A DNA stretch of 64,000 nt, taken from contig CAZWRA010000001.1 of the NCBI GenBank assembly GCA_964635995.1, forward strand, positions 226-64,225. The letters are read 5' to 3'. The notes under the pieces were generated by a model. The model searched no databases. It was not told the DNA's origin and was given only the letters and a program-made list of their open reading frames with translations. Below, one piece after another: positions 28,895 through 46,452 of this stretch. Origin of the DNA: an uncultured Candidatus Saccharibacteria bacterium (GTDB taxonomy: Bacteria; Patescibacteriota; Dojkabacteria; J137). Every line of letters begins with the position of its first letter. Position 1 is the stretch's first letter. A program made the position numbers and the translations under genes.

Positions 28895-28993
28895 TATTTT
28901 TTGTTAACTAAGTTTGAATTATATTATAGATAGTCTATATATCAAAATAATTTCTTTATAACTTATCTAATATATAGTAGGATTTTCTAATGA

Positions 28994-29734
28994 GTGCATT
29001 TTTAATAATAACAATTTCTGTTTTAAATTTTTTTTGCAGGATTTATACTTTCCGATCTTGTAGATACTCGTTATAAGTCGACTTGGAATTCTATTCTATA
29101 TGAAAATACTTTTAAAAATTCAATTGTTGGACTTGTAGCTGCATATGCATCTTTGCCCCTTTCACATTACTATCTTCTAGAAAATCACGATATTGTTTAT
29201 ACGCTTGCATTCTTGATTTCTAATATTATGTTACTGCTTTTAATATTTTCATCTTATTTTGATATTCAATATTTTAAAGTATTAAATGGATTAACTAAGT
29301 ACTCAATATTTTTTCTTATTGTATTAAATATTGGAGCATTATTTATCTTTACTAATCAAAACGACATATTACTATTTAATAATTTAGATTTTAGACCTCT
29401 AGATAATTTAGTTGCAGGTTTCTTTTCTTGGTTTGTAACATTAAGTATTGTTAAGCTTTCAAATGATAAGGGCATGGGTGAAGGAGATATTAGAATAGCT
29501 ACAATTATTGGTTTGTCTTTTGGAATCTCGAAGGTAATTTTAGCAATGTACATAGCTATTTTCAGTGCAATTTTATTTGGATTATTTGCAATGGTACAGA
29601 AACGTAATAATACATACTTAAGATTAAAACTGCCTTTTGTTCCATTTCTAGTTTTTGGAGCAGTTGTATCTCTCTATCTTACAATAAATGCAAATGATAT
29701 TTTCATTTTCATAGAGAATCTTCTATTCTCTTAA
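28994..29734 (+). CDS. pilD: Prepilin (type IV pilin leader) peptidase, A24 family; start uncertain (frame open back to a GTG at about 28994; ORF track ATG at 29153)
   Basis: C-terminal A24 motif GMGEGDIRIATIIGLSFG within a multi-TM protein. Convergent with the pilus gene cluster. Confidence 0.65.
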
Positions 29735-30109
29735 TACACTATAAGGATCAGTAGAGATATTTATTTCATAATTTCTAACAAAATTTGTATCAAGATTTGT
29801 TGAAACTACCTTGATATTTCGAATTGATCCACCTGGATTAGTTACTGTAGCTGAACAAATATCAATACCATCAAATCTTACATCAAAAACTCCAGTATAG
29901 TTGTTATCTTGTTTAATTCTTAATATTCCCTCTTCTAAACACGTAATTGATTTTAAATAACTAACTGAGTAATCACTTAAGTTTCTACTAGTTTTATTAA
30001 TATCAATTGTATTTAATACAAGGGTTACAGCACCAACTGTAAGTATAGCTGTAATAACAATTACAGTTGTCAACGCTACACTTGCTTTTTTAGTTTTTTT
30101 ATAAGACAT
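29723..30109 (-). CDS. Pilin-like / pseudopilin protein with N-terminal TM helix
   Basis: Short basic N-terminus followed by hydrophobic helix (KKASVALTTVIVITAILTV…). Last gene of the pilus operon. Confidence 0.4.
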   Translation of the reverse strand: MSYKKTKKASVALTTVIVITAILTVGAVTLVLNTIDINKTSRNLSDYSVSYLKSITCLEEGILRIKQDNNYTGVFDVRFDGIDICSATVTNPGGSIRNIKVVSTNLDTNFVRNYEINISTDPYSVLRE

Positions 30110-30575
30110 AAATAGTACTTAATGATTCAGTTACTCCAGGGTTTTTGTCATAAGCTAAAGTTATACTAAGTTCTACACCTATAATTTCATTATCAGCATT
30201 TTCAATCTCTGTAAAAATAAACTCCTGAACAATTTGACTTTGTAAAGTTATAATGGACTGATCTGCAGTTTCAGTTCTAACTAGTCTATTATTTTGAACT
30301 GAAAATGAAATATCTCCAGAGGCTGTATTAAAAATTAATGTTCCATTATTCAAGTCGAAATCACTTGATTGATCAATTGTTGATGCTCTTTCTGCTACAT
30401 CTAGTAATTCTTCATTAATAATAATTAATGATTTCTGCATTTCACCCCTGTTTAGTGAAAGTCTCTGATATTCGTTAATTCTTATCCCGAATTGAACAAT
30501 GACGATAAAAGCAACTCCAAACAATGTTAAATATACTGTGTTTTCAAGAAGTGTTATTGCTTTCTTATATCTCAT
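30099..30575 (-). CDS. Pseudopilin / minor pilin-like protein
   Basis: Degenerate prepilin N-terminus (KKAITLLENTVYLTLFGVAFIVIV) with Glu at +5-like position. Confidence 0.5.
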   Translation of the reverse strand: MRYKKAITLLENTVYLTLFGVAFIVIVQFGIRINEYQRLSLNRGEMQKSLIIINEELLDVAERASTIDQSSDFDLNNGTLIFNTASGDISFSVQNNRLVRTETADQSIITLQSQIVQEFIFTEIENADNEIIGVELSITLAYDKNPGVTESLSTIYVL

Positions 30576-30636
30576 CTTGTATAGACTAAGCTAAAATCTT
30601 GAAATATCGGACTAGTAACTCCATCTGATTGAAAAA

Positions 30637-32478
30637 CTAACCTGTACTGAAAATATCTTTATTCTGTACTTCATCTGGTAAAAATTCCCTCTCGCCATTT
30701 GTAAAATAAGTACTTCCAGTATTGTCAGGTCCAACCCAATTCGCTCCTGACATATCCGAGTTATCTGGTGCTCTAACTTGAAGTTCTAAACTTGTATTAC
30801 CAGGAATAGAGCTTGTCCATTGAATTAAGTGATAGCTTGGATCATTATATGTAGTATCAAAAATACTAGAAATAAACTCACCTTCTTCTTCAAAAGAACT
30901 TCCTCCAGATCCTAATCCTCCTTTAATAACTCTAAATTCTTCATTCGAAGCATTTCCAATAACGTAAGAAAAAACATCCTCTAGCGGAGTTCTTACAGAA
31001 GTTACTCCATTAAAACCTGATGGAACATCTAATCCTCCACAATATTGAATATTTGTAATATTAGTAATGTCTACAACCTGATATTCTTGCCCGCCATATC
31101 CTACAATAACAACCCTGTCGTCTGTAACAGTATTTCCTGTAACACTCATTCCATTAGTATCGTAAGAATCGAGAATTGGAACAGATCCTGTTTTATTTGT
31201 AGAATCCAAAATAAAAAATTCATCCCAAAAACTTGAGTAGGTTGTTCCAATAAAAACTCGATTTCCATCCTCGCTAACATAAAGATCTGATGATTGAGAA
31301 AAATTCAAATCTTTATTCTTTACTACTCTTATATCGCTTGGATTTGTTATGTTTACAATTATAAGTTCATACCAGTCATCATACATAGAAAGAAAAGCAT
31401 AATTACCTCTAATTTCAATTTCAGTTATATATCCACTAGAAAATAACCCAACTGTTAAAGAATCTAGTTGCGGCCTTGAGCCTATCTTTGAAGATAGATC
31501 AAATGATCTTAATACTCTTCCTTGAGCAACATAACCTACATTTCCATTAACATAAACACTTGTTGGATCAGTAGTTCCACTTGCATCGAAATATCCAATC
31601 TCGCTGTAGGGAGCAGTATCAGTATCTAAGATAACAACCTCTCTATTGTCTGTAGTGGTAGCTAAATAAGTGTAATTTGCATCTCCATATATTCCTGTTG
31701 TTGAGTAGCCTGAAAATTCAGCTTCGATAGTTACTCCTGCAGGATCTGTTGAGTGATCAATTAATAAGTTCTGAAGAGAATAACTTGTTGAACCTAGAAA
31801 AGCTTTTCCTGGAATTGAACTAACAATTGTAGGTATACCATTCCCAGGAATATCATAAATTGTCTGAGTAAGCTCCGGTTGACACCAATTAGAAAAAGCT
31901 GGGCTAGCTAGCTGAACCTCACCTCCAAAGTCATTAGAAACAATAACAGTATCTAGTGTTCCTGAGTTAAACTCATTTTCTGTTGTATCTACCCATTCAC
32001 TAGTATGCCAACTGTTTAAAAAGAAAGTTGAAAATATTGAAGATTCTTCTCCAGCCACATTATTCCATTTAGCTGTAATTATTACTTGTTTTGATCTAGG
32101 ATCCAATGTTCCTACAGTACTTACAAACTGACCATTAATATCTCGTCTTGCAGGACTTACTGTAAAACTTATAGAAAATCCTCCTGTAATAAATTCACCG
32201 TTAATAATTTCAGCTTCCCCATTTACTATTTGTATATGTCTTGGATTAGAATCAGAAATTGCAAGGAGCTCTCCCCACTTTTCATCTTTTAATATTTCAA
32301 TTCCTTGTATTGTTTCTTGAATTAAAATTTGAGCCTCACTTCTAGTTCTTTGATTAACATCAGATCTTAATGCATCTACACTAAACAAGGAAACGGTTGT
32401 AAAAACAAAAGAAAATAAGGCAACTGCTAAAACAAGTTCTATTAATGAAAATGCTTTTTTGGTTTCCTTATCTTTCAT
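30637..32478 (-). CDS. Large (613 aa) type IV pilin-like protein, candidate tip adhesin / PilY1-functional analogue
   Basis: Prepilin-type N-terminus KAFSLIELVLAVALFS followed by a long Ser/Thr/Gly/Asn-rich beta-rich domain. Confidence 0.6.
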   Translation of the reverse strand: MKDKETKKAFSLIELVLAVALFSFVFTTVSLFSVDALRSDVNQRTRSEAQILIQETIQGIEILKDEKWGELLAISDSNPRHIQIVNGEAEIINGEFITGGFSISFTVSPARRDINGQFVSTVGTLDPRSKQVIITAKWNNVAGEESSIFSTFFLNSWHTSEWVDTTENEFNSGTLDTVIVSNDFGGEVQLASPAFSNWCQPELTQTIYDIPGNGIPTIVSSIPGKAFLGSTSYSLQNLLIDHSTDPAGVTIEAEFSGYSTTGIYGDANYTYLATTTDNREVVILDTDTAPYSEIGYFDASGTTDPTSVYVNGNVGYVAQGRVLRSFDLSSKIGSRPQLDSLTVGLFSSGYITEIEIRGNYAFLSMYDDWYELIIVNITNPSDIRVVKNKDLNFSQSSDLYVSEDGNRVFIGTTYSSFWDEFFILDSTNKTGSVPILDSYDTNGMSVTGNTVTDDRVVIVGYGGQEYQVVDITNITNIQYCGGLDVPSGFNGVTSVRTPLEDVFSYVIGNASNEEFRVIKGGLGSGGSSFEEEGEFISSIFDTTYNDPSYHLIQWTSSIPGNTSLELQVRAPDNSDMSGANWVGPDNTGSTYFTNGEREFLPDEVQNKDIFSTG

Positions 32479-32927
32479 TATAAATTTATAACTCCTGAAG
32501 AGTTAATAATTAAATTTATTGAACTTGATCCGCTCGTTAGAACAATACTACCAGTTCCTACTGGTCTATAGTCTCCTTGATTAAATCTAAGTTCATTTCC
32601 TGTCGCATTAAATACAGCACTTTCTATACTTATTCCAAAAGGTAATTCTTTAACTTGAGTCTCAGTTGCACTAGCTAAATTATTTCCTGTAAAAAGTGTA
32701 TAACTTTCCTCAGCAAAAGATATTCCAAAAGATGAATCGTCAAGACCTGAATAAGCATTTTGTTGTTGAACAAATATATCTGAACTTATTCTTCTGGCTG
32801 TATTCGTTAGATCATTTCTTCTAAATTCGTTAGCTGCTACAGGAACAAACAAAAACCCAGCTAAAGAGACTATAGCCAAAACTAGAATAAGCTCAATTAT
32901 AGTAAACGCATTCTTCTTATCCGACAT
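32478..32927 (-). CDS. Minor type IV pilin
   Basis: Class III signal: KKNAFTIIELILVLAIVSLAGF (Phe+1, Glu+5). Confidence 0.7.
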   Translation of the reverse strand: MSDKKNAFTIIELILVLAIVSLAGFLFVPVAANEFRRNDLTNTARRISSDIFVQQQNAYSGLDDSSFGISFAEESYTLFTGNNLASATETQVKELPFGISIESAVFNATGNELRFNQGDYRPVGTGSIVLTSGSSSINLIINSSGVINL

Positions 32928-34060
32928 TAATACTTCCTGTTAACTGATAGATAGGTCCTACAATAATAATTGCTAGGAAACCAATCATTGCTCCAATAAA
33001 TACTAATAAAATTGGTTCTAATAATGTCGATAGATTGTTTGAAAGCTCTTCAACTTCTTCAGCATGATATTCATATAAATAACCTAAATTTTCTTCAAGA
33101 GTACCAGTACCTTCCCCCAACCTCAATCATTTTTATAAAGGAAGGAGGAAAATACTTTGGGTAGAAAAGTAGTGAGGATGCAACTGACTTTCCACTTTTT
33201 ACCTCATTTGCAACATCTTTTAAGGCTTTTTTATAGTAAGTGTTACTTACAGTGCCTGTTGCAATATCAAGAGCTGATACTAATGGAATCCCTGTTTCTA
33301 AAAGAATACTTAGTGTTCTTGCAAATGAAGCTAAGATGTTATGTTGTGTAAGTTTTTTAATTACAGGAAATTTTAATGAGAACCAGTCTTTAAACTTTTT
33401 TCCAGATTTTGATCTTAAGAACATAATAAAAAGAAAAATTGCTAATGCTAATCCTCCAGCTAGAAATAAAGCATTTGTACGTATAAATGCAGAAGCAGCA
33501 AGTATCCCTTTTGTTAAAGGTGGAATATTTTCAAAAGATGTAAAAAGCTCTTCAAGTTTTGGCAAAATTAAAAATATTACTCCAAGCATTTCAACAAAAG
33601 TCAGCATAAATACAATCGCAGGATAGATTAGAGCTCCTTGAACTTTTTTTTCCAAGAGTGTGTGCTTTCTTTAAATAATCAGAAAGAAAAAAAGGTTTTT
33701 CCCAAAGTGCCTTCCTGCTCACCAACAGAAATTACAGACATGATAATGTCTGAAAAAACTTTTGGATACTTTCTCATTGAATCAGACAAAGTCATTCCAT
33801 CACTAATCATGCCAGCAATTTCAATGTATTTTTTGAAAGTCTTTCGTCAGCAGTTTGTTCAGAAAGAGTAAGAACTGCATCATTCAAAGCAAGTCCAGAT
33901 CGTAACATAAGATATAGATTTCTTATTGAAACCAAAACTGCAAGTTTAGGTATACCACTAAAATAAATCTGTCCTCCTTTTTTCTTTTTTTGGGTAGTTT
34001 TCTCTCTTTAGCCATTATTCTTTTAATGCAGTTACTCTCATTAATTCAGATAATGAAATC
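32917..34060 (-). pseudogene. pilC: Type IV pilus / T2SS platform protein PilC/GspF, disrupted by at least two frameshifts (pieces 32917..33126, 33095..33655 and further fragments 33660..34060 in other frames)
   Basis: GspF-domain motifs in three different frames. They are …LETGIPLVSALDIATGT… …FPPSFIKMIEVGG, then LEPILLVFIGAMIGFLAIIIVGPIYQL, and upstream fragments …IRNLYLMLRSGLALNDAV… / ISDGMTLSDSMRKYPKVFSDIIMSVISVGEQEG. ORFs 33095..33655 and 32917..33126 overlap by 32 nt. Confidence 0.7.
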
Positions 34061-34065
34061 ACTCC

Positions 34066-35297
34066 TTATCTTAATTTCTCAACACCATCTTCAACAATTA
34101 ATTTAAGACCTTGTCTTCTTGCTTCGTTATAAATTTGATCAGTGTCAGCTCCAGCCATTATAATTTTTCTTATGCTTTCAGTAATTTCTAATACTTCATA
34201 AAGACCAATTCGGCCTTTGTATCCATTTTCTACAGATCCTTCAGGTACATTTGGTGCAAATAATTTTTCCCCAACTTTTAAATATGCAGCTAAGTCGGGT
34301 CTATATACTTTTAGTTCTTCATATTCTTCATTTGTTAACCTCACTTCCTTCTTTTATTGTTCGTCAATTTTTCTAGCTAAACGTTGCGCTATAACAACAT
34401 TTACTGTTGTTGCGAGTAAGTATGGTTCTACACTCATATCGATAAGTCTAGGAATTGTAGTTACAGCATCATTAGTGTGAATAGTAGATAGAACTAAGTG
34501 CCCTGTCATTGCGGCATTAGTTGCAATTTTAGCTGCCTCGGAATCTCGAATCTCTCCAATCATAATTACATTAGGATCCTGTGTCTTAGAATTGATCTCA
34601 GTCCGTTACTGAATGTTAAACCAGCCTTTTTGTTAACTTGAACGTGATTTATTCCATTAATTTCATATTCTACTAGATCTTCAACTGTAGTTATATTTAT
34701 ATCTCTAGAATTTATTGTTGTTAAAATTGCGTAAAGAGTTGTTGTTTTACCAGATCCTGTTGGACCTGAAGCAAAAATCGATCCATAAGGTTTTTTAAAT
34801 GCTTTTTTAACAATTTCATAATCTTTATCTCTTAGTCCTAAATCTTCAAGTTCAAATGATCTACCTTTTTGTGTTAAAAGTCGAATTATAACTTTCTCGC
34901 ATTTAGCTGTTGGAAGAATAGAAATTCTTGTATCTAACTTATCCTCAAAATCAAAAGCAATTCTTCCGTCTTGTGGCGCGAAATGTTCATCAGTTCGAAG
35001 CTTTGCATTAACTTTAATTTTAAATACTAATGTTTCTTCGTATCTTTTTTCTATTGTATAAAGGTCTTTTAAAATTCCATCTATTCTATATCGAACAACC
35101 ATATTATCTTCATGAGGTTCAAGATGGATATCAGAAGCACCTTTATTTAAAGCCGTTAAAACTATATCATTAAGCATTCCTGTTATACCTCTTTCCTTAC
35201 CATCCTGTTTCCCCTCTTCAATTAATGGTGCATCATCGGATTGTATTATCTCTTCTTCTTTTATAGATGTGTTTAATGACTTCTTGGCCATAATCAT
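34066..35297 (-). pseudogene. pilB: Type IV pilus assembly ATPase PilB/GspE split in three pieces (34566..35297, 34354..34563, 34066..34344) by one frameshift and one in-frame TAA
   Basis: Piece 1 ends …[18 protein letters not shown] but the -1 frame reads [14 protein letters not shown], joining Walker B. Walker A is GPTGSGKTTTLYA and the His box is [13 protein letters not shown]. Pieces 2 and 3 are in the same frame, separated by TAA (…ARKIDEQ*KKEVRLTNEEY…). C-terminal piece has GYKGRIGLYEVL. Confidence 0.8.
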
Positions 35298-35312
35298 AGT
35301 TTAGAATAAATA

Positions 35313-35345
35313 AAAAAAGACCTCAACAATTGAGGTCTTTTAAAT
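35313..35345 (-). terminator. Rho-independent terminator hairpin downstream of the major pilin gene (perfect 8-bp stem GACCTCAA/TTGAGGTC, loop CAAT, flanked by A-run and T-run; potentially bidirectional)
   Basis: Plus-strand sequence aaaaaaagacctcaacaattgaggtcttttaaa between the pilin stop (35362) and the pilB start (35297). Confidence 0.55.
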
Positions 35346-35361
35346 TCTTTTATTTAAGAGT

Positions 35362-35823
35362 TTATCGAGAAACTGAGATTGTAGTACCTTCTGCATCCGG
35401 TGCTGCGATTGTTACTCTTCCACTTGCTTCTTCGCAAATTGTATAACCTGTATCAGCTCCAGTTCCTGTTGAAGGATCCTGAGGAATTCCTACAATGTAT
35501 GTAGGTGTTAATGCTGTAGCAAGATCAGCATCTCCAGTTCCAATAACATCAGTTAATGGACAAGCTTGGAAAGAACCTCCAACAACTCCAGCAGCTGTTG
35601 CTAGTGAGTCTAAGTCGTTTCCTTGTTCTGAAGTATATTGTGTTACAGCATTTAGAATCTGTAATACATCTGAACTTCTTTGTGCATTTCTTGTGTCTCT
35701 AAAGTTTCTTGCAGGGTTAATTGCAATAAATGTAATTGTTGCAAGAATTGCAATTAAAGCAACAACTACAAGGATTTCAATAAGTGTGAATCCTTCTTTA
35801 TTTTTTTCTTCATTTTTATTCAT
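35362..35823 (-). CDS. pilA: Type IV major pilin (PilA-like)
   Basis: Canonical prepilin leader and N-methylation motif KEGFTLIEILVVVALIAILATI (G-1, F+1, E+5). 153 aa. Confidence 0.85.
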   Translation of the reverse strand: MNKNEEKNKEGFTLIEILVVVALIAILATITFIAINPARNFRDTRNAQRSSDVLQILNAVTQYTSEQGNDLDSLATAAGVVGGSFQACPLTDVIGTGDADLATALTPTYIVGIPQDPSTGTGADTGYTICEEASGRVTIAAPDAEGTTISVSR

Positions 35824-35927
35824 GAAAAACTATAGATAAAAAGTAAAATTTTGATCTCTTTATACATTCAGTATATGAAGGTAAAATTATGAAGTCAACA
35901 AATATTTTTAAGAATTAAGATTTTATA

Positions 35928-36200
35928 ATGGCCTTGTATTATAGAATTGAATTTAATAAGCAAATTAAAGCCGAGGAATTAGGAATAATTCTTAGTAAAA
36001 TTAATTCGTTTATAGGACCTATAGGTATAAATATCTCCGATTTTAATGATGAAAACTTTGAAACTGATAAAGTATTAAAGAAAGAGGGTTACAGTGATGA
36101 AATGCTTTGGATAAATGAGGGAGATTTTTTTAATTATCTTGAAGGTTATCTTAAGATTTTCTTTAAGGAGAAAATTGGAGCAAAAAAGACACTTATTTAA
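35928..36200 (+). CDS. Small hypothetical protein
   Basis: 90-aa ORF, no motif. Confidence 0.3.
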   Translation: MALYYRIEFNKQIKAEELGIILSKINSFIGPIGINISDFNDENFETDKVLKKEGYSDEMLWINEGDFFNYLEGYLKIFFKEKIGAKKTLI

Positions 36201-36485
36201 AAGAGTTCAAAAGATCACTTTTAATTTTAAATAAGGAAGAGTTAAATTTAGATATTGAGAAAATATTAATCCAAGAAGGACAAATGTTAAAAAAGGAAAA
36301 CTGGGTTGAAATACCTGATTAAATCTTTTTATCAAAGTCTTAAGCTCATCTCGTCATAGGTTTGTAAGTGTCTAATTGTGTGTTGCACATGTTTATTTAA
36401 TTAGTAAATTAAAAGAATGATTAAAAATTTCTATTCAAGTATCTTTTTTCTCTAGCCTAGCCAGACGAAGCTTTAGCGTAGGAGA

Positions 36486-36502
36486 ACGGAGAAGACAGGA
36501 TT
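36486..36502 (-). repeat. 17-nt exact copy of the 3' end (acceptor/T-arm) of the adjacent tRNA-Ser gene (cggagaagacaggattc); further degenerate tRNA-like fragments at about 36526..36616
   Basis: The same 17-mer occurs at 36678..36694 as the 3' end of tRNA-Ser. 'cttcgtaaaactcag' (36526) and 'cttcgtaaactcag' (36580) resemble the tRNA variable arm 'ttcgtaaaacg'. 'cagagtcgaacct' (36603) resembles the T-arm. Confidence 0.5.
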
Positions 36503-36677
36503 CCCTTATTTAAATTCGATCCTATGCTTCGTAAAACTCAGCATGATCTCATTTAAAATGGATCTCGATTTTCTTCGTCTTCGTAAACTCAGACAGAAAA
36601 TCAGAGTCGAACCTTCAGTTCTCAACTTTATCTATCTTTTGAATTTCATAACCACTTTGTGGTATGGAAATTATAAA

Positions 36678-36763
36678 CGGAGAAGACAGGATTCGAACCT
36701 GCGTTTCGTAAAACGAAAACATCGTTTCCAACGATGCGCCTTAAACCGCTCGGCCACCTCTCC
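36678..36763 (-). tRNA. tRNA-Ser (anticodon GGA), class II with long variable arm
   Basis: Manual fold: acceptor GGAGAGG/CTTCTCC, 3-bp D stem, anticodon stem CATCG/CGATG with loop TTGGAAA, 17-nt variable arm hairpin (TTTCG-TTTTA-CGAAA), T-arm GCAGG-TTCGAAT-CCTGT, discriminator G. Confidence 0.85.
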
Positions 36764-36804
36764 AAATCGAGTAATTATAACATTTCTAATGCTCTACAAT
36801 TCTC

Positions 36805-37146
36805 TTAAAAGCGTTTAAATCTATATCTAAGTCTTGTAATTAACCCTTCTTTAATTGATGAATTACTATCTAGGTCACCTGTCATTAAACAGTACGTATA
36901 TTCATAAAGATATTTTCCAGAAAGAGATAAAGCATTTCCTAAATCAGTAGAAATAGTAGTCACATAAGAATAAAATCCTTCTCTAACTGTATATGAAGTA
37001 TATTTATCGTTCATTCCTTTAATCAAACCCATCATGTAAATATCAATCGTTTCTTTAATTTTGTTAGTATACTTCATATTTTTATTTTGCATTAAGATAT
37101 TCCTTGCATGAATATAAACATTTTCTATACTTCCAAACTCATCCAA
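36805..37146 (-). CDS. Hypothetical protein
   Basis: 113-aa ORF, no motif. Confidence 0.35.
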   Translation of the reverse strand: MDEFGSIENVYIHARNILMQNKNMKYTNKIKETIDIYMMGLIKGMNDKYTSYTVREGFYSYVTTISTDLGNALSLSGKYLYEYTYCLMTGDLDSNSSIKEGLITRLRYRFKRF

Positions 37147-37175
37147 TAGTCCTCAATAAAACTCATCTATTGTAA

Positions 37176-37949
37176 ATGATACTGTTTCTTGATCTGCAAT
37201 TTCTGTCATATAATCTAAATATGAATGAACTTAATTCACATAATTTCGATGCTAAAACGACACTTTTTAGTGGGCAAACATTTTTGTGGAGTAGACAAGG
37301 TAATGATTTAATAGGTTCTTTTAAGAATAAGATCATTATTTTGAGTGAGAGAAGAAATAAATGGTATTGGCAAACCTATCCCAATAAGGATGATTTTGAC
37401 TTTGTTAAAAATTATTTAAACTTAGATTTCGATGGTCAGAAGTTTATTACAAGTACAAATGATGAACATATAAGAAGTTCTTTTTCTAAATACCCAGGTT
37501 TAAGAGTTTTAAAACAACCTTTTGAAGAAACTATTCTCTCATTTATTCTTGCTTCGAATAAGAATATAAAAGCTATAAGAAAAACCTTTAATTTTCTTAA
37601 AGGAAAACAGAATAGATATATAAAAGTTGATAATAAGAAATACTTTTTCTTCCCTTCAATAGAATTTATTAATGATGTAGATATTTCTGTTTTACAAGAA
37701 TCGGGAGCAGGATATAGAGTTAAATATTTAAAAGATCTAGCTAATAAATTCGAAACAATAAAAACAAAAGGAGATTTTTCAGAAATAGCTAATTCACTAA
37801 AAAAAGTTAATGGAATTGGAGATAAAATTGCAGATTGTATAATGACTTTTTCATTAGGATTTAATAATATAACTCCTATAAATAGATGGTCTGAGCGTAT
37901 AATTACAGAACTTTATAATGATTTTTACTTTGAAAAAGTACTCAGATAA
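37176..37949 (+). CDS. ogg: 8-oxoguanine DNA glycosylase, OGG1 family (HhH-GPD)
   Basis: Colinear similarity to OGG1 blocks: TLFSGQTFLWSR (cf. LPSGQSFRW), ETILSFILASNKNIKAIRKTFNFL (cf. [24 protein letters not shown]), SGAGYRVKYL (cf. LGLGYRARYV), VNGIGDKIADCIMTF (cf. LPGVGTKVADCICLM, catalytic Lys conserved). Confidence 0.75.
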   Translation: MILFLDLQFLSYNLNMNELNSHNFDAKTTLFSGQTFLWSRQGNDLIGSFKNKIIILSERRNKWYWQTYPNKDDFDFVKNYLNLDFDGQKFITSTNDEHIRSSFSKYPGLRVLKQPFEETILSFILASNKNIKAIRKTFNFLKGKQNRYIKVDNKKYFFFPSIEFINDVDISVLQESGAGYRVKYLKDLANKFETIKTKGDFSEIANSLKKVNGIGDKIADCIMTFSLGFNNITPINRWSERIITELYNDFYFEKVLR

Positions 37950-37972
37950 AAGAGATTGGTTTACAAATAAAT

Positions 37973-38341
37973 TTGGCGAGAATACTGCTTACGCTGGTCA
38001 ACTTTTATTTGAATATATTAGAAAATATAATCCTAACAATTATTAAGAGTATGGGATGGTTTAGAAAATCAGATTGTATAGATTTTTATAAGATTCACGA
38101 AAGATTAAATTCATCGTCATTACTAACTCTTTTATGGCTTGCACATTCAAACATAACATTTAAAACTCCTACTGACATATCTACAATTGTAGGATACATT
38201 ACTGAAAATATAATAGCTAAAAGAATAATTGATGGATATGTAACACAAGAAGAAGTTGATTTTTTAAGAAATGATCTCTTATTTAATCCAACATATATAT
38301 GGAATACACAAAAAAATGAAACTATTACTAATGAGATATAA
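37973..38341 (+). CDS. Hypothetical protein
   Basis: 122-aa ORF, no motif. Confidence 0.35.
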   Translation: MARILLTLVNFYLNILENIILTIIKSMGWFRKSDCIDFYKIHERLNSSSLLTLLWLAHSNITFKTPTDISTIVGYITENIIAKRIIDGYVTQEEVDFLRNDLLFNPTYIWNTQKNETITNEI

Positions 38342-38347
38342 TTATTA

Positions 38348-39307
38348 ATGCAATCTTTATCACTTTCAAATCAAACAGTAGGAGATATTTTAAAAGAGAA
38401 AAGACAAGTTCTTGGTTTAAAACTTAGTACAATTGAGCAAGAATTAAAAATAAAAGAAAAATATCTTGCATACCTTGAATCAAATAGATTTCAAGCTTTC
38501 GAATCAAAAGTTCAAGCTAAAGGTTTTTTAAAAAATTACGCTCAGTTTTTAGGTTTAAATCATGAAATGATGGTCGCTCTTTATAGAAGAGATTTTGAAA
38601 ATAAAGACATGAAAAGAAAAATCGAAATTGAAGAGGAGAATGAAGAATTAGAATTAAAAAAAGAAAGCATTTTTTCAAATATTGTAATAAAAAAGAAACA
38701 TATCACAATTTTTACCTTACTTCTTATTGTTTTATTTACTACTCTTCTTATAGTAAATATTTTACAAAGAACATTTTCTAAACCAGAGCTAATTCTATTT
38801 GAGCCTTTTGAAATTTCAGGAAGTTATGAAGGAAAAATTGCTTACGAAGAGAATGACATAATTTTAAAAGGACAAATTGAAAAAGGAAGCTCAATACTTA
38901 TTAACTCGATTCCAATAAGCGTAAATTCTGAATATCGATTCGAATCGAACACAATTCCAACTACAGACGAAGAAACTTTAATTACAGTTACAACTGAAAA
39001 TTCTCTAGGAGCAAAAACTGAAATGAATCTTACTCTCTATAAGCCTGACAATAAGATAGAAAGCTTCAGTGCATTTATTTCTGCTGAACTTTATGTTGAA
39101 TATATGATAGTGAAATCTGATGGAATTGTAAGATATGAAGGAGGGTTTCTTCCAGGAGAGCCTTTAGATATAACAGCATTAGAAACAATCGAAATAGAAA
39201 CTCCAGATTTTCAAGATTTAGAAGTACAAATTATAGATGAGATTTATACCTTAGATACTGAATATAGTGTTTTTCGAAATACAACTAGAGAAATTATTAA
39301 AGAATAA
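38348..39307 (+). CDS. rodZ: RodZ-like cytoskeleton/cell-shape protein: N-terminal XRE-type HTH, one TM helix, C-terminal extracytoplasmic domain
   Basis: N-terminus TVGDILKEKRQVLGLKLSTIEQELKIKEKYLAYLESNRFQAFESKVQAKGFLKNYAQFLGL matches the RodZ HTH region, followed by TM ITIFTLLLIVLFTTLLIV. Confidence 0.6.
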   Translation: MQSLSLSNQTVGDILKEKRQVLGLKLSTIEQELKIKEKYLAYLESNRFQAFESKVQAKGFLKNYAQFLGLNHEMMVALYRRDFENKDMKRKIEIEEENEELELKKESIFSNIVIKKKHITIFTLLLIVLFTTLLIVNILQRTFSKPELILFEPFEISGSYEGKIAYEENDIILKGQIEKGSSILINSIPISVNSEYRFESNTIPTTDEETLITVTTENSLGAKTEMNLTLYKPDNKIESFSAFISAELYVEYMIVKSDGIVRYEGGFLPGEPLDITALETIEIETPDFQDLEVQIIDEIYTLDTEYSVFRNTTREIIKE

Positions 39308-39543
39308 TTATTTTTTCTTTTAATTAAATCTTTCAAAGAAAATAAACCCCAGACAAGATTAATAATTAGAAAAGGCCAAGAGCAAATTAAATAAGCATAA
39401 ACTGCCAGTAATGTTCCAGAAAGAAAGTTTAAAAAATCATATGTAAAGTCAGTATTTTTAAGTTTGTCTGTTTGATTAAGTATAAAAGCTGATAAAGTTA
39501 AAAATGCACCAGAAATTCCGATTAATTGAATTACTATTTCCAT
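39244..39543 (-). CDS. Small membrane hypothetical protein (overlaps 3' end of rodZ-like gene)
   Basis: 99-aa hydrophobic ORF. Could be spurious. Confidence 0.25.
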   Translation of the reverse strand: MEIVIQLIGISGAFLTLSAFILNQTDKLKNTDFTYDFLNFLSGTLLAVYAYLICSWPFLIINLVWGLFSLKDLIKRKNNYSLIISLVVFRKTLYSVSKV

Positions 39544-39584
39544 ATTTTTTATTCTTTAATATCTTCTGAATATTCTCTTAGATT

Positions 39585-40793
39585 TTAATACTTTTTTCCA
39601 ACTAAATTTTTAGGCATATACTCCTGTTCTACTTTCTTTCCATTTTTCTCCTCTAGCCAAGGATATCTCGTATGTCCTTTTCCATACCCATGCTCTTTCA
39701 TTACTTTATTTGGAGCATTTCTAAGATGAAGTGGAATTGGATCAAGAGGTTTATTATGAATATCGCTGATTGCATTACTTATGCCTTCAGTTACAGCAAT
39801 TGATTTAGGACAAGAAGCTAAGTAAGTAGCGCATTGAGCTAAGATTAATTTTGCTTCAGGCATACCGATCATATTAACAGCTTGCATTGTTGAGGTAGCT
39901 ACAACTAAAGCAGTAGGTTTTGCATTTCCGATGTCTTCAGAAGCAAATATAACCATTCTTCTTGCAATAAAAACTGGATCTTCTCCTGCTTCAATCATTC
40001 AAGAAAGATAATGAAGAGTAGCATCTGCTTTTCCTCCTCTCATTGATTTAATAAAGGCAGAAATAGTGTCGTAATGTGCATCTCCCTTTTTATCGTATAC
40101 ACCAAATTTTTGTTGAAGAATATCTGAAACAATCTCTCGAGTTATTTTTTTATTGATTTTAGAAGCGAATTCTAAAGCATTAATAATTTTTCTTGCGTCT
40201 CCGTCTGCAAATGCAATTAAAAACTCTATCGCATCCTCATCCCATTTAATCTTTTTTATCTCTTTATTTGCTCGATTAAAAACTTCTAAGCATTCTTCAT
40301 CGCTTAACTTTTCAAATCTAAATACTCGACTTCTTGAAATTAAAGGAGCATTAATTTCAAAACCGGGATTTTCGGTTGTTGCTCCAATTAAAATTATAGT
40401 TCCGTTCTCAACATAGGGAAGAAATGCATCCTGTTGAGCTTTATTAAATCTATGAATTTCATCTACAAATAATACTGTTTCTCTAGCTTCTTCAATTTTT
40501 CTATGTTCAGCTAACTTTACAATCTCTCTAACTTCTTTTATTCCTCCAGTTACAGCTGAAAATGAAACAAAGTGTGCTTCTGTATAGTTTGGAATTAATC
40601 TGGCTAAAGTAATTTTTCCACATCCTGGAGGTCCCCAAAAAATCATTGAAGAGATATTACCTGATTCAATAATTTTACGAAGAGGTTTGTTCTTTCCTAG
40701 AATATGTTTTTGACCAATGAATTCATCAAGATTCGTCGGCCTTAGACTTTCCGTTATCATCCTTCTTTCTACCTGATGTAAAAAGCGTAACAA
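39585..40793 (-). pseudogene. rarA: Replication-associated recombination protein A (RarA/MgsA AAA+ ATPase) interrupted by an in-frame TGA at 39999..40001; probable true start MITESLRP at about 40760
   Basis: N-terminal ORF has Walker A GPPGCGKITLARLI, Walker B VLFVDEIHRFNK, sensor motifs. The downstream ORF is contiguous and in-frame and encodes the MgsA_C domain (MIEAGEDPVFIARRM…PKSIAV…HLRNAPNKVMKEHGYGKGH). TGA aligns with a conserved Arg (…HYLS*MIEAGEDP vs …YLARMIEAGEDP). Confidence 0.8.
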
Positions 40794-40931
40794 GATCTTC
40801 AGGTTTTTTTGAAATTATTGATCTAAAGAAACCCATGAACTCATTATACTGCAGTCTATCTAAATACCTAAATACATAATTTAACATTGGGTCTGTATAG
40901 TTCTCTCCAGTCTCGACTCTAACTGTATTTC

Positions 40932-41594
40932 CTAATAAATCTTCTTTGAGCTTCGTCCAGTCTTTTGGTGTTTTTTATACCTTGGTACTCCTTTTTCTTC
41001 AAACTCAAAAAACTTTGTCTTACATGCTAACAAACCAATTATATCTAGAACATAATTACTAACATGTATTAATGGTAATGCCTGTTCTTCTGGACTACTT
41101 TGAGTTCTTAGTTGTTGTGAAATATAAAACCCTCTCGCAAGTTTAAACATAACAGGAAACGGTTTTAAATTCTCTACTTCAGCCCTCATTAAAACGACAC
41201 CTGTAATTCTTCTTTCATTAAAAATCTTTTTATCAAGCTCTCCTGTTGTTGAACCTCCAAAGAATATTCTAATTCTATGTGGATTATCTATGTCTGAGCT
41301 AAAACCAATGCTTGAAAATAGCTCAAGAAGATCATATGTACAAGATACTAGGTAAGCGGAAAATCTTTCGAGTTCAACTTCAGAAGTTGATCTATAAAAT
41401 GATGCAACTTGTTCAAATTTATCAATAACAGATTGATCTATTTCAACCCTAATTCCTAACCCATGTCCTTTAGAATCTAAGATAACTTTCTTGTCCTCTA
41501 AAAGAGCATTAACAGGATCCCTGTTAACTGCAGCAATTTCGACAGTTTCTCTTACTAAATCATTATCATCTGGGGGTTTAAGATCTGACATCAA
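40932..41594 (-). CDS. Hypothetical protein (220 aa); C-terminus may be truncated by a homopolymer (A6) frameshift, since an 80-codon stop-free continuation exists in the +1 frame
   Basis: No motif recognised. Downstream region 40794..40930 translates without stops in the +1 frame (…KDWTKLKEDLLGNTVRVETGENYTDPMLNYVFRYLDRLQYNEF…). Confidence 0.4.
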   Translation of the reverse strand: MMSDLKPPDDNDLVRETVEIAAVNRDPVNALLEDKKVILDSKGHGLGIRVEIDQSVIDKFEQVASFYRSTSEVELERFSAYLVSCTYDLLELFSSIGFSSDIDNPHRIRIFFGGSTTGELDKKIFNERRITGVVLMRAEVENLKPFPVMFKLARGFYISQQLRTQSSPEEQALPLIHVSNYVLDIIGLLACKTKFFEFEEKGVPRYKKHQKTGRSSKKIY

Positions 41595-41804
41595 AAAATA
41601 GCATCAATAATATTACATAGAGCACTGCAATATATTTTGAAAGTGTGATTTTGTCAAATTCTATCTAGTGTGAAAGTAGTTTTCCCATTATCAGCATTGG
41701 ATTACAAGCGACAATATGAGCAACAAATTCTAAAAGCTCTTCATTTTTAATATTATAAAAGAAACTTATAACTAAAGCATTTGAGTGAACTTAATTTGAA
41801 AAAA

Positions 41805-42110
41805 CTAATCGTGAAGAATTACTTCAAAAGCACCTTTACCTCCATTATAAAGGTTTGCAGATTTAAATTCAGAGACTAATTTGTTCTTTGGGAGAAGTTT
41901 TCTTACTAAAGGCCTTACTAACTTACCGTGACCAGTTATTACTAATAAGAATTTGTTTCCAAGTAAGTAATTATCTTCGATAAACTCAAAAAGAATTTTT
42001 TCAACTTCAAAAGGATCAAGTTTATCGTAAAGATGAAAATCCAGTTCGTTTTGTTGAAAGAAAAATGAGGTTAGATTATTCGATGAGTGATCTTTGTATT
42101 TATTAGCCAT
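41805..42110 (-). CDS. Smr-domain protein
   Basis: LDFHLY…LLVITGHGKLVRPLVRKLL…GGKGAFEVIL matches the Smr domain pattern (DLHG…IIHGKG…GG.G). Confidence 0.65.
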   Translation of the reverse strand: MANKYKDHSSNNLTSFFFQQNELDFHLYDKLDPFEVEKILFEFIEDNYLLGNKFLLVITGHGKLVRPLVRKLLPKNKLVSEFKSANLYNGGKGAFEVILHD

Positions 42111-43879
42111 TAATAAATCTCAAAATTTTCTAACAATTTTTTATCTCCCTCAATTTGGTATTTTAATAAATCTCTATAAATACCTTCTCTTGAAGAAAGT
42201 TCTTTAGGAGTTCCTGAATCAACAATATTTCCATCGCCAAGAACAATAATTTTATCTACATTTTGTATAGTTGAGAATCTATGAGCAATAATAATTACAA
42301 TCCTGTCTTTCATTAACGCATCCATTGCTGTTTGAACTTCATTTTCAGATTTTGAATCTAAATTACTAGTTGCTTCATCCATAATAACAATAGGTGTATT
42401 ATGAAGAATTGCTCGAGCAATTTGTATTCTTTGCTTTTGTCCACCAGACAATCTAACTCCTCTTTCACCAACTTGAGTATCTAACTTGTTTTCAAATTTT
42501 TCTACAAAATCCCATGCATTTGCAGCTTTTAGAGCGCTAATAATTTTTTCATCGCTAACTTCCATTCCATAAGCTACATTTTCTCTAATTGTTGTAGAAA
42601 AAAGCTCATTTTCTTGGAAAACTAATGATATCATTGATCTAACTTCATTATGTGAAAGATCATTATAATCCTTTCCATCTACAAGAATTGAACCTCCTGT
42701 AGGATCATAGAACTTCATAATTAGATTAATGATAGTTGTTTTTCCAGCTCCAGAATGACCTACTAAAGCTACTTTTTCATTTTCATTAATTGTAAAGTCA
42801 ATTTTTTTTAAAACATTTTTCTCAGATTTTTCATATCCAAAAGAAACATTTTTGAATTCAATTTTTCTTCCAACTAAATTCTCAGCAGAATATTCTTTAT
42901 CATATTGTTCAACTTGTTCAAGATCTAAAATTTCAAATAATTCTTTCGTTCCAGCTTCAGTCTGTTGAATCTGAGTTAAAATAAATGACATAGCGAAAAG
43001 AGGGATTCTTGCCTGCATTATAAGCTGAGTTAAAAGAAAGACATCTCCGAATGTATAGTTCCCAATAAAAGCATTATAAAAAATCACAACATTCATTCCT
43101 AAAAGAATCAATTCTAAACTGAAATTTCTAAGAAAATCAAAAATATGAAATGTTCTACTTTGTTTTGCAAAAATTTTATTAACTTCTACTTGTTCAGAAT
43201 CTACAAAGTCATATTCTTTCTTTTGATTTATATAGCCTTTAACTAACTTCATATTAGTTATAACTTCCTGAATTCTTCCTCTTGTTATATCTTCATGTTT
43301 ATTTTTACCTACTTCTTTCTCTCCCCATTTCTTAGCAGAATACTGACTTAAACCTATGTAAATAGGGAATAGAAGCAATGTAAACATAGCAACAGGTGGA
43401 CTAAATACAAACATAGTCACTACTGTAAAAATGCTTAACAGAATATTAGGGAAAATAAAATTTGAAGCTGTATTCATAAACCCTTGAACTGCAACAATAC
43501 CTCTATTTAGCTGGTTAACTATTTTTCCTGAAATTTCGGTATCAAAGTAGCTTTGAGGAAGTCTGAAGATATGGTTATAAAATTTTGTAATTAAAAATCT
43601 TCTTAATTCTCCTCCAAAATGGTCTCCAATTCTTTGTGAAATTGAACCTAGTGCAATGTTAAAAATACTTAATCCAAATCCTATACCTATAAATAAAAAC
43701 ATCTTATTTATACTCGCATCTCCAGTTTCTATTTGTAATTGAATCTCATCTACAACAACTTTTGAAATAATAGGAATTATCTGTCTTAATAATGAAGTAA
43801 AGATAGAAAGCCCAAGTATAGAGTACATAACTTTATGTAATGGCTTAGAAATTTTTATAAGTCTGACTATGTTTTTCAT
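42110..43879 (-). CDS. ABC exporter, fused permease + ATPase (MsbA/LmrA-like)
   Basis: 6-TM N-terminal domain. Walker A GHSGAGKTTIINL, signature LSGGQKQRIQIARAIL, Walker B VIMDEATSNLD. Confidence 0.9.
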   Translation of the reverse strand: MKNIVRLIKISKPLHKVMYSILGLSIFTSLLRQIIPIISKVVVDEIQLQIETGDASINKMFLFIGIGFGLSIFNIALGSISQRIGDHFGGELRRFLITKFYNHIFRLPQSYFDTEISGKIVNQLNRGIVAVQGFMNTASNFIFPNILLSIFTVVTMFVFSPPVAMFTLLLFPIYIGLSQYSAKKWGEKEVGKNKHEDITRGRIQEVITNMKLVKGYINQKKEYDFVDSEQVEVNKIFAKQSRTFHIFDFLRNFSLELILLGMNVVIFYNAFIGNYTFGDVFLLTQLIMQARIPLFAMSFILTQIQQTEAGTKELFEILDLEQVEQYDKEYSAENLVGRKIEFKNVSFGYEKSEKNVLKKIDFTINENEKVALVGHSGAGKTTIINLIMKFYDPTGGSILVDGKDYNDLSHNEVRSMISLVFQENELFSTTIRENVAYGMEVSDEKIISALKAANAWDFVEKFENKLDTQVGERGVRLSGGQKQRIQIARAILHNTPIVIMDEATSNLDSKSENEVQTAMDALMKDRIVIIIAHRFSTIQNVDKIIVLGDGNIVDSGTPKELSSREGIYRDLLKYQIEGDKKLLENFEIY

Positions 43880-43971
43880 AAAAACAAAACTATTATAACT
43901 CTAAACACTAAACTTTTCAGAGAAAAAGAGCCCACTTTATGCGGACTCTTTAATTATTGAGCAGATTCGTC

Positions 43972-45291
43972 TTAAATTAAAGAAACTGAATGAACAATTT
44001 CATTTGTATAGGAGTTTCTTAGAACTGCGTTATCTCCTTCAACACTTAATTCTACTCCTGTGAAGTAGCTTGGCATTTGGATAAATGACAATGTTTCTGT
44101 AGCTACATCAAAGATTATTAACTGAGCATTAAGGTCCGTTGTTCCACAATCACCGCAAGTTGTTTGATCAAATACTAATAAATTATTTCTAGCAGTGTCA
44201 TGAACCCAAGTCTGTTCTTCATTAGGTAATCCAAAAGGATATCCATAAGTAAATGGAGTAGCAGAAGAATAAACTGTCTCCTCAACTAAATCTGTTACAT
44301 TTACCTTAGTTACTCTATCAGAGTAAAGACTATATATACTATCTCCAATTTTTGAAGCTGCTAAAGCGTCACCTCCTTTCTGAGTAAGAGTTACAAAATC
44401 GCCTGTGCTTTTCTGGAAAGAAACTTCTCCTGTAGTTTAATTGTATTCTATGAAATTAATATCTCTATTAAGTTCTGCAGCAGTATCTAACCAATTATAG
44501 TACTCATCAAATGATCCGAATCTATACTTAACTTAAAAATTGTTTGTAGCTGGATTGTATTCAACTAAAATGTTTTGATCGTTATTATTTCTATATGTAA
44601 ATCTTAATCTTCCAGTTTCGTTTGAAATGAAGAAATCAAACATATCCATTCTGCTTTCTGATTCAGGGAATGTATTTAATGTATATGAATACCAGCTTTG
44701 TGATGATTCAATCCATCTAACTAATCCACCTGTTGTATATGCATTTGAGTTAATTCTTCCCCAAAGTTCTCCATTAGCAACAAATAAATCAACATCTACT
44801 CCTGTACTTACAGCTAAAACAGACTCCCATCCTCGAACTGAACCTGTAGCTAAATCAATCCTTGCTACTCCATCGAATGAATCTACCCAAAGATCACCGT
44901 TAAAGTAAACAAAGCTAATGTTTGAAGTTCCTGGGAACCCCATAGATTGAGTCCAAGTATTAACTATTTGTCCAGATTGCAAATCAAGTTCTAAAATATC
45001 ATATTCACCAGGAAACTGACTCTCTCTTGCTTCATCAGTACAAATTGTAAACATAGAATCGTTAACAATAATGAACTCTTGTTGTCCTCCTCCGCAACCA
45101 TCTGGAATTAATAGACTTCTTGCTACTAAATCTCCATTAGGATTAAAAACCATAATTACTGAAGGATTTACAGTTTTAATGAATAAATGATCTGCATAAA
45201 CTTGTGCGCTTAATGGGTATGTTAAATCTGTATTGTCAGTTAATGTATATTCAAAATTAGTATCAAAATATCTATCATCAATAGTTGTTAC
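43972..45291 (-). pseudogene. C-terminal beta-rich (propeller-like) portion of a large secreted protein gene continuous in frame with the DUF5648 repeat gene upstream, interrupted by three in-frame TAA codons (about 45292, about 44533, about 44437)
   Basis: Manual translation shows one reading frame open from 45894 to 43972 except three TAA. The last 158-codon segment (TTGEVSFQKSTGDFVTLTQKGG…NEIVHSVSLI) has no start codon of its own. ORF-track piece 44533..45153 is the middle segment. Confidence 0.5.
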
Positions 45292-45894
45292 TTATTCAAA
45301 AGAAGACATAAAAACATTGTTATTTTCAAAAGCATTTAAGTTTAGTACTTTAGGAAATACGTAAAAAACTATTCCTTCATACTCGTATATAGAAGATAAA
45401 TCTCCCTCAATATAATCTTTTTCAGGCACATCTACAGTAAATACATGGGCTTGTCTAATATTACTCCAGAATTGAAATACAGGAACTGAGCTTTGTGAAG
45501 ATTGTGTAGTCTCTGCACAATAAGCTACTGCCTCATAATCCCAATTAGGATTTGTGTCTTCAATATATTCTTTCTCAGCTTCAGAAGGTGTATAGAAATG
45601 AACTTCTTTAGAAGGATTATAGAATCTATAAACTTCTGTTCCATTACTACAAGATCCATCGAATTTGTAAGCTTCTAATACAATCCCTTCGTAATTCCAG
45701 TTTGGATTAGTATTTTTAACGTATTCTGCCTCAGCTGAATCAGCAGTATAGAAGTGCGCTAGGGAGACGGGGCTATAAAATCTATAAATAGGGGTTGTTG
45801 CTTCTTGCGCATTAACTTTATTAATCCCTAAAACAATTGTTAAGAAAAGAAAGGATAGGGAGACTATTATCGAAAACAAAAACATCTTTTTCAT
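45292..45894 (-). CDS. Secreted protein with three DUF5648-type repeats (YRFYNP…HFYT…E…NWxYEGI)
   Basis: Signal peptide MKKMFLFSIIVSLSFLFLTIVLGINKVNA. Three repeats resembling the clostridial cell-wall-protein DUF5648 motif (RLYNPnsGeHFYT…GWkYEGia). Confidence 0.65.
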   Translation of the reverse strand: MKKMFLFSIIVSLSFLFLTIVLGINKVNAQEATTPIYRFYSPVSLAHFYTADSAEAEYVKNTNPNWNYEGIVLEAYKFDGSCSNGTEVYRFYNPSKEVHFYTPSEAEKEYIEDTNPNWDYEAVAYCAETTQSSQSSVPVFQFWSNIRQAHVFTVDVPEKDYIEGDLSSIYEYEGIVFYVFPKVLNLNAFENNNVFMSSFE

Positions 45895-46083: not shown

Positions 46084-46097
46084 TTACTAAAAGTTTA

Positions 46098-46436
46098 TGC
46101 AAAAAGAAGTTTTCATAAAAGCAAAGAAAATTATTAATAATCCAGACATTATTATTGATATGTTTACTTCAACATTTGAATGGATAAGCCCAAATGCACT
46201 TGATATATTTAAATATGAGTAAAGTGAGATTATAGGAAAAAAGCGACAACTTTAGTAACTGCAGAATTAGATGAAGCTATAAAGATACTGTTAGATTTAA
46301 TAAAGTCAAAAAAAGGAACTAGAGAGATAGAATTTGTAGATGGCTTAGGTCATAAAATAAGAATTAATGCTGATTTTCAAGTTTTAACTTTTAATAAAGT
46401 TCCCTATCTTATTGCTAAAATCATTTCAATAAAATA
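46098..46436 (+). pseudogene. PAS-domain protein remnant (in-frame TAA plus a frameshift at an A6 run)
   Basis: MQKEVFIKAKKIINNPDIIIDMFTSTFEWISPNALDIFKYE*SEIIGKK then +2 frame ATTLVTAELDEAIKILLDLIKSKKGTREIEFVDGLGHKIRINADFQVLTFNKVPYLIAKI, a PAS-like fold pattern. Confidence 0.5.
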
Positions 46437-46452
46437 AATTTTAAAGAAGACT

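Follow-up and report, generated by a model that had tools for sequence, protein, structure and literature searches.

Multiple lesions in pilB and pilC of a type IV pilus operon from a Dojkabacteria genome

The pilus operon and its fragmented motor genes

We analyzed a 64-kb stretch of DNA (64,000 nucleotides; hereafter, the window) from contig CAZWRA010000001.1 of the metagenome-assembled genome (MAG) GCA_964635995.1, and all of our conclusions rest on this one window of one MAG. The window is AT-rich (GC content of ~31 per cent), and the best homologs of its proteins are named proteins of Candidatus Dojkabacteria (WS6, Candidate Phyla Radiation [CPR]/Patescibacteria). It carries a type IV pilus operon on the minus strand that runs from position 35823 to position 29723 and contains, in order, a major pilin gene, a hairpin, the assembly ATPase gene pilB, the platform gene pilC, and genes for pilin-like proteins of 149, 613, 158, and 128 amino acids (aa); a gene for an A24 prepilin peptidase (pilD) is convergent with the operon, on the plus strand. 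This layout is the one described by the first-pass annotation, which had been made from the sequence alone. The same gene order, with every gene intact, is found in four relatives (L001 [GCA_964437465.1], L003, L004, and L039 [GCA_020429495.1]), in which PilB has 420–444 aa, PilC 370–435 aa, the product of the large pilin-like gene 637–683 aa, and PilD 243 aa. These sizes replace the lengths that had initially been expected for PilB (about 560 aa) and PilC (about 400 aa); PilB proteins of the clade are short (about 420–445 aa) because the long N-terminal domains seen in proteobacterial PilB (~560 aa) are absent from them. Neither pilT nor pilMNO genes are present in the operon of any of these relatives. 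Likewise, Pfam scans of the window outside of 32.9–35.3 kb (the excluded part being pilB and pilC) yielded no match to pilM, pilN, pilO, pilQ, or pilT, as had been stated before.

Neither pilB nor pilC has a continuous open reading frame (ORF) in the window. Each lesion was called by three-frame translation, frame-switching tblastn with the proteins of relatives, and nucleotide alignment against three relatives. The pilB pseudogene (GspE/PilB-type assembly ATPase; 34018–35297, minus strand), recognized from its reading frames, the nucleotide alignment, and PF00437, has a conceptual product of 426 aa and lies in fragments of 243, 69/83, and 92/95 aa, the three pieces that had been reported; the largest fragment stops before Walker B. 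Its lesions are a +2 CA duplication within 34574–34586 (AGACACAGG, compared to AGACAGG in all relatives), an in-frame TAA at 34354–34356 (TAC, TAT, or AAG in relatives), and another in-frame TAA at 34066–34068 (GCG, GCT, or GAA in relatives), downstream of which the last 16 pilB codons stay in frame and specify the conserved C-terminus GVISLSELMRVTALKE.

When stitched together, the 426-aa PilB matches PF00437 (T2SSE) over positions 8–370 of 370 (382 bits, E = 2.5e-114), and its Walker A, Walker B, and His-box motifs are recognizable. It is 84 per cent identical to the intact PilB of the nearest relative (P0001), a divergence no greater than that of intact neighbors, and about 15 billion recorded proteins include no intact PilB above 84 per cent identity. 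A test against 115 homologs revealed substitutions at four invariant columns (G133C, V137I, P208L, and T254A). Of these, P208L turns the Asp box from VEDPVE into VEDLVE, at a proline found in all 115 homologs; the glycine of TAKGEK, which is also invariant among the homologs, is replaced by cysteine. PilB is therefore changed at 4 of 76 invariant columns (homologs: median 0, maximum 3), compared to 1 of 91 in an intact ABC-transporter control, a difference that is not significant.

The pilC pseudogene (GspF/PilC platform protein; 32917–34017, minus strand) was traced by frame-switching tblastn with three relatives, nucleotide alignment, and PF00482, and has a conceptual product of about 364 aa. 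Its reading frames run 0>2>1>2>0>1, and it lies in at least five pieces (at least three had been counted), with the largest ORF spanning 186–191 aa. Frameshifts were located within 33823–33838 (−1), 33682–33703 (−2), 33640–33656 (+1, in an A8 run), and 33110–33121 (+1, in a G5 run). In addition, the conserved GGQIYFSG is not in the frame set by the only pilC start codon (ATG 34015), and an A7GA6 tract (33973–33994) lies between the two; this tract near the start is the probable site of a fifth frame change. The stitched 364-aa protein contains two PF00482 (T2SSF) stretches (E = 1.3e-42) and keeps all 19 of the 19 most conserved PilC columns, with 0 changes. Compensating pairs of frameshifts in pilC were considered and rejected, because conservation between two of the lesions is limited to the shifted frame and a stop interrupts the other one. 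The nucleotide alignment also bears out the observation that some breaks sit in short repeats (caca) and homopolymers.

At the head of the operon, the major type IV pilin gene (35362–35823, minus strand) is intact. It encodes 153 aa with an EGFTLIE leader and a PF07963 N_methyl match (E = 4.8e-8), and its product is 79 per cent identical to the sister pilin over the full length. A promoter-like site, which is a consensus match only (35870–35898; TTGACT-17-TATACT), lies upstream of it, and an intrinsic-terminator-like hairpin (35315–35341, minus strand; a 12-bp stem with 4 GC pairs, a 3-nucleotide [nt] loop, and a T-run) is situated between the pilin gene and pilB. The window has this major pilin as a single gene, and two tandem copies are present in L001 (8904–9934) and L003 (4662–5687).

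Beyond pilC, also on the minus strand, three small pilin-like genes are intact: a minor pilin gene of 149 aa (32478–32927; leader KNA|FTIIE, weak PF07963 match), which is collinear with 143–153-aa genes of relatives and in a single frame, a gene of 158 aa (30099–30575), collinear with 160–161-aa genes of relatives, and a gene of 128 aa (29723–30109), also collinear with relatives and with a faint PilX_N match. The large gene among them (30572–32478, minus strand), in which a pilin is fused to a beta-propeller, is frameshifted near its C-terminus. Within 30647–30663, 1 nt is deleted (an A3 run instead of the expected A4); other residues take the place of the conserved ~27 aa at the C-terminus, and the present ORF has 613 aa (30637–32478). 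The conserved C-terminal motif of the family (RYFQY..SD..P..L..Y) sits only in the shifted frame, which ends in a TGA that overlaps the ATG of the next gene and is equivalent to the ancestral stop. Family members found by homology search have 637–660 aa, and the losses at conserved columns are confined to the C-terminus. An AlphaFold2 (AF2) model of the 613-aa protein (predicted local distance difference test [pLDDT] score of 90) features an N-terminal pilin helix (12–66), a small beta domain, and a beta-propeller, with WD40-like PDB matches; the protein is probably a tip adhesin.

The prepilin peptidase gene pilD (28990–29734, plus strand; ATG 28990) carries a +1 frameshift in a T8 run at 29028–29035, where T7 is expected. 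The frame is lost after codon 13–15, and residues 16–238 of a relative's PilD align in the other frame. Downstream of the frameshift, the A24 domain is open (PF01478 positions 2–104 of 104), and an internal TTG (29153) could possibly give a predicted product of 193 aa. In the sister genome GCA_964437465.1, an N-gap lies inside pilD. The first-pass statement that the pilin genes and the prepilin peptidase gene remain intact holds for the major pilin and the 149-, 158-, and 128-aa genes; it fails for the peptidase gene, with its T8 frameshift, and for the 613-aa gene, with its 1-nt deletion.

Reproducibility and distribution of the lesions

The disrupted sequences recur in a separate assembly. 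A 4983-bp Logan contig from SRR10095374 (corresponding to 33434–38416) is 100 per cent identical to the window. It spans every lesion of pilB, four of the five in pilC, and a frameshift in an 8-oxoguanine glycosylase (OGG) gene. A second Logan contig from the same run (L043; 4655 bp, 39480–44134), also 100 per cent identical, spans lesions in an MgsA/RarA gene and in a conserved hypothetical gene. Tract lengths are identical in the two assemblies. The SRR10095374 data were obtained from thermal-swamp sediment, with NexteraXT libraries sequenced on an Illumina NextSeq550 (PRJNA564648; PMC8027834). The identity of this independent Illumina assembly and the intact orthologs in the four relatives confirm the earlier claim that pilB and pilC are inactivated.

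There are 47 runs of at least 7 bases in the window, most of them in genes that are still intact, and nine such runs are found inside an intact 1009-aa UvrD-like gene. The spectrum of lesions includes four nonsense codons, one CA duplication, and one −2 deletion. We rejected systematic miscalling of homopolymers, since homopolymer-rich long genes are intact and the data are Illumina. An alternative genetic code in which UGA encodes Gly or Trp, known from some CPR bacteria, was also rejected, because both stops in pilB are TAA, relatives have Arg at the position of the MgsA TGA, and many ORFs of ~1000 aa are open under table 11.

At least six genes outside of the pilus operon are disrupted as well, and the framing of the damage as a pilus-specific event was therefore misleading. 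These genes were identified by comparison with sister loci (L001, L041, and L042) and by Pfam scans. The OGG gene (37176–38046, plus strand) has a +1 frameshift at about 37917–37930, near its 3' end. In its product, Asn replaces the Asp of the sister protein 19 residues after the helix-hairpin-helix (HhH) Lys, a spacing that presumably corresponds to K249/D268 of human OGG1 and would place the change at the catalytic Asp. Loss of OGG could raise G:C>T:A mutation. The MgsA/RarA gene (39558–40760, minus strand) contains an in-frame TGA at 39999–40001 (Arg in relatives) and a TAA at 39585–39587 that trims the last 9 aa, both of which are present in L043, and its Walker A motif is changed from GKT to GKI (40608–40619). 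Next to it, a conserved hypothetical gene (40729–41591, minus strand; 290 aa in the sister) has a −1 frameshift in an A-run within 40967–40979, also reproduced in L043. Within 46097–47438 (plus strand), the homolog of a 113-aa sister gene is split between two frames at about 46210–46237 (two-frame tblastn), and an Ldh_2 gene is frameshifted at about 46680–46700, with a Pfam match that begins at profile position 79 of 333 and the N-terminus in another frame. Finally, a DUF3095 gene remnant (59511–60151, minus strand) matches profile positions 1–105 of 378 only; beyond them, it has frameshifts and a stop and is truncated against dnaE, which gives it the appearance of an older pseudogene than the others. 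The ~200 nt at 41604–41807, between an Smr gene and the homolog of the 290-aa gene, where the sister carries a 297-aa gene, retain a weak similarity over 24 aa, which suggests that they are the deletion remnant of that gene.

In contrast to these losses, full-length intact matches were obtained for UvrA, Mfd, the UvrD-like protein (confirmed as full length by metagenome-contig relatives at ≤44 per cent identity), DnaE, PheS, YchF, RNase J, and PPase, and the ABC transporter, UmuC-like polymerase, S24 peptidase, and DHH genes are also intact and full length. Of the roughly 45 window genes that could be assessed, about 10 are disrupted; among about 42 sister genes, the number is only 1 (Fisher's exact test; P = 0.008). 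The DHH-family gene, which is one 352-aa ORF in the window, is called as two overlapping pieces (216 and 148 aa) in the sister GCA_964437465.1 (L041, 1592–2640), indicating that frameshifts occasionally occur in relatives too. Two gene pairs split by an in-frame stop (44533–45894 and 49541–50299) were not counted as broken, because each gene has its own start codon and no homolog spans both.

The lesions are concentrated in the motor genes. Together, pilB and pilC carry eight lesions in 2.4 kb, compared to 0.75 expected from an even spread of the 19 lesions in the window (Poisson P about 1e-6), and each of the two genes was hit several times, whereas the other broken genes took one or two hits. 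When pilB and pilC are set against the five pilin-like genes by gene length, eight of nine lesions fall in the motor genes (P = 0.003). In terms of lesions per kilobase, this supports the contrast drawn by the first-pass annotation between degraded machinery and intact pilins; once indels are normalized to homopolymer content, however, the contrast is not significant (P = 0.09–0.26). The excess can be read in two ways: either the motor died first, with the pilins still useful to another machine, or pilC is more prone to slippage.

Some other features of the window were recorded. An intact UmuC-like Y-family polymerase gene (IMS and DUF4113; 47428–48705) and an intact gene for a UmuD/LexA-like S24 peptidase (51076–51567) adjoin the pseudogene-rich stretch. 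A 1018-aa ORF at 5379–8432, with weak Dickkopf_N-like cysteine-rich and DUF11 matches, may encode a surface protein. A YjeF_N-family gene (54514–55773) shares its strand with dnaE in the window, whereas the two genes lie on opposite strands in two HKST-UBA genomes (L005 and L006), which points to a local inversion.

Interpretation and alternative explanations

We hypothesize, with a probability of roughly 0.8, that pilB and pilC are real, irreversible pseudogenes and part of a broader erosion of dispensable genes in this lineage. The locus is the conserved pilus operon of the clade, which would here be in decay. With one frameshift and two nonsense codons in pilB and five frame disruptions in pilC, both genes would be irreversibly dead, and without them the locus would be unable to polymerize pilins into a filament. 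The pilD gene and the beta-propeller tip gene each carry one frameshift, which would be recent, with the small pilin genes still open. Six other dispensable genes (OGG, MgsA/RarA, Ldh_2, two hypothetical genes, and the DUF3095 remnant) are disrupted in the window and housekeeping genes are untouched. Under this hypothesis, the lesions, which are mostly small indels at short A, T, or G runs with a few nonsense substitutions, would have built up under relaxed selection. We infer that the lesions are fixed in the population; this pilus would then be non-functional in vivo, as judged from its genes, and pilB and pilC may have died first. The more far-reaching proposition, that the lineage is in active genome erosion with about one-fifth of the assessable window genes freshly disrupted (including those for OGG, RarA, and the type IV pilus, a structure regarded as a hallmark of the phylum), appears rather unlikely to us.

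Several points weigh against the irreversible-pseudogene hypothesis. Nine of the ten broken genes lie within 28.9–47 kb (binomial P about 9e-5), and no disrupted genes were found in 1–28.9 kb or 47–59.5 kb. No compositional difference of the 28.9–47 kb stretch was seen, and the only account that we can offer for the clustering is that the region is rich in dispensable genes. The window and the Logan contigs were assembled from the same read set, and the fifth pilC lesion, in the A7GA6 tract, is deduced rather than demonstrated. The nearest relative is only about 77 per cent identical in DNA, with saturated synonymous sites, which puts the timing of the events beyond resolution. Moreover, missense decay is slight, and the ratio of indels to substitutions is unusually high for old pseudogenes (PilB 4/76, PilC 0/19). 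The slightness of this decay suggests that inactivation is recent relative to the split from the known relatives. The earlier description of the system as freshly inactivated fits in that the conceptual proteins are well conserved (PilB at 84 per cent identity, PilC at 19/19 columns), and falls short in that each gene has taken several hits.

One rival idea, that the lesions are artifacts of sequencing or assembly and that the true genes are intact, would be in line with the origin of both assemblies from a single read set. Five of the nine frame disruptions in the pilus locus, among which are the six indels of pilB and pilC and those of pilD and the 613-aa gene, fall in runs of 5–8 identical bases, a sixth (in the 613-aa gene) falls in an A3 run, and PilC shows no missense decay. 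Nevertheless, we consider this idea very unlikely: the data are Illumina, two assemblers returned the identical sequence, and the lesions, which include the four nonsense codons, the CA duplication, and the −2 deletion, are concentrated in a few genes (P about 1e-6), while most of the 47 long runs are in intact genes. Furthermore, genes with such lesions also carry active-site missense changes (PilB G133C and P208L, MgsA GKT to GKI, and OGG Asp to Asn), which would be loss-of-function changes in genes that are already broken. Phase variation, which the first-pass annotation had proposed and in which slipped-strand changes in tract length would switch the pilus on and off in the population, is very improbable. 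No single tract change restores either motor gene, since pilB would need three independent reversions (two of them of nonsense codons) and pilC five. The breaks do include caca, A8, G5, and T8 tracts, and the T8 tract of pilD and the A7GA6 tract of pilC lie near 5' ends, in the classic layout of contingency loci. However, the tracts are not conserved (relatives read GGTAAGAAG, GGTGAA, and similar sequences), and OGG, MgsA, and other genes carry the same kinds of lesions. Phase variation is excluded for pilB and pilC, and would be confined to the single T8 lesion of pilD, where it is formally possible. Rescue by slippage has been proposed for poly(A) frameshifts in insect endosymbionts. That the broken genes still work through transcriptional or ribosomal slippage at A or T runs, or through assembly of split polypeptides, would be in line with the AT-rich genome (about 31 per cent GC), the location of some lesions in A8 or T8 runs, and the good conservation of the conceptual proteins. 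This explanation is more improbable still, because TAA and TGA codons, a CA duplication, and a −2 deletion are not bypassable in this way, a single pilC transcript would need five successive corrections, and mutations also affect the Asp box of PilB and the Walker A motif of MgsA.

A rival that would leave the organism with a pilus is possible, although we do not favor it. Here, the operon would be a redundant copy that is being lost, and a second set of pilB and pilC (and of pilT and pilMNO) elsewhere in the genome would still assemble pilins, including those encoded in the window, so that the motor pair described here would alone have become dispensable. The smaller number of lesions per kilobase in the pilin-like genes (P = 0.003 by length) and the retention of all conserved residues of the beta-propeller protein except for its lost tail are consistent with continued use of the pilins, and the absence of pilT and pilMNO from the operon of every relative examined implies that other pilus genes, if they exist, lie elsewhere. 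There is also a precedent in Nanosynbacter lyticus TM7x, for which one of its two sets of machinery is not essential and which has a minor pilin with a beta-propeller, PilX2 (PMC12206443). On the other hand, pilD and the tip gene are also damaged, and the contrast between pilins and motor genes does not survive normalization to homopolymer content (P = 0.09–0.26).

Comparison with known systems

Nearly all Patescibacteria are reported to have type IV pili, to which roles in host attachment, motility, and DNA uptake are ascribed (PMC13293708, PMC12206443). In N. lyticus TM7x, two systems have been described (T4P-1 and T4P-2), of which one is dispensable and which include the beta-propeller minor pilin PilX2 (Grossman et al. 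2025, PMC12206443). The operon in the window resembles the TM7x systems in having a PilB-type ATPase, PilC, PilD, a major pilin, and several minor pilins, one of them fused to a beta-propeller (compare PilX2), and in having no secretin. It differs in that its motor genes are pseudogenes, in that the operon is without pilT and pilMNO and pilD lies within the locus, and in that the Dojkabacteria are a different class, known here from sequence. At the level of protein families, the conceptual translations have full-length domain matches to GspE/PilB (PF00437) and GspF/PilC (PF00482); unlike members of these families, the genes have no continuous ORF, and the Asp-box proline and the invariant glycine of PilB are replaced.

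A lineage that has lost the motor of a conserved pilus operon would be a natural knock-out, which would point either to a second pilus system that is sufficient or to an exception to the dependence of CPR bacteria on pili. Should the genome lack a second pilus machine, the organism would be an example of a CPR bacterium that has no working type IV pilus and another way of meeting its hosts or taking up DNA. There is also a consequence for surveys of gene presence and absence: in automatic annotation, the fragments become T2SSE and T2SSF genes in their own right, and the genome would wrongly count as pilus-positive. Reductive evolution of CPR bacteria is usually deduced from missing genes, whereas here young pseudogenes, two of them in DNA-maintenance genes, are seen in a minimal genome. 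In full-text searches on Patescibacteria or CPR and pseudogenes, no paper was found that, by its title and abstract, deals with the pseudogene load of CPR genomes.

Many young pseudogenes are characteristic of recently host-restricted bacteria, such as Mycobacterium leprae, Shigella, and Sodalis. As in these bacteria, dispensable genes for surface structures and DNA repair are hit in the window and the core is intact, and remnants such as DUF3095 and the 41604–41807 segment are present. In contrast to them, the evidence comes from a 64-kb window, in a CPR genome that is already tiny, and no expansion of insertion sequence (IS) elements is visible there. The homopolymer-controlled pilus and adhesin genes of Neisseria and Haemophilus are phase-variable contingency loci, with which the genes described here share frameshifts at short homopolymers, some of them near the 5' end of a gene. 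Unlike those loci, the genes in the window have several independent lesions each, including nonsense codons, in tracts that are not conserved in relatives. The decay of a pilus operon is, in itself, a known kind of event; what is moderately interesting is its context, a phylum in which pili are nearly universal and a tiny genome with many young pseudogenes.

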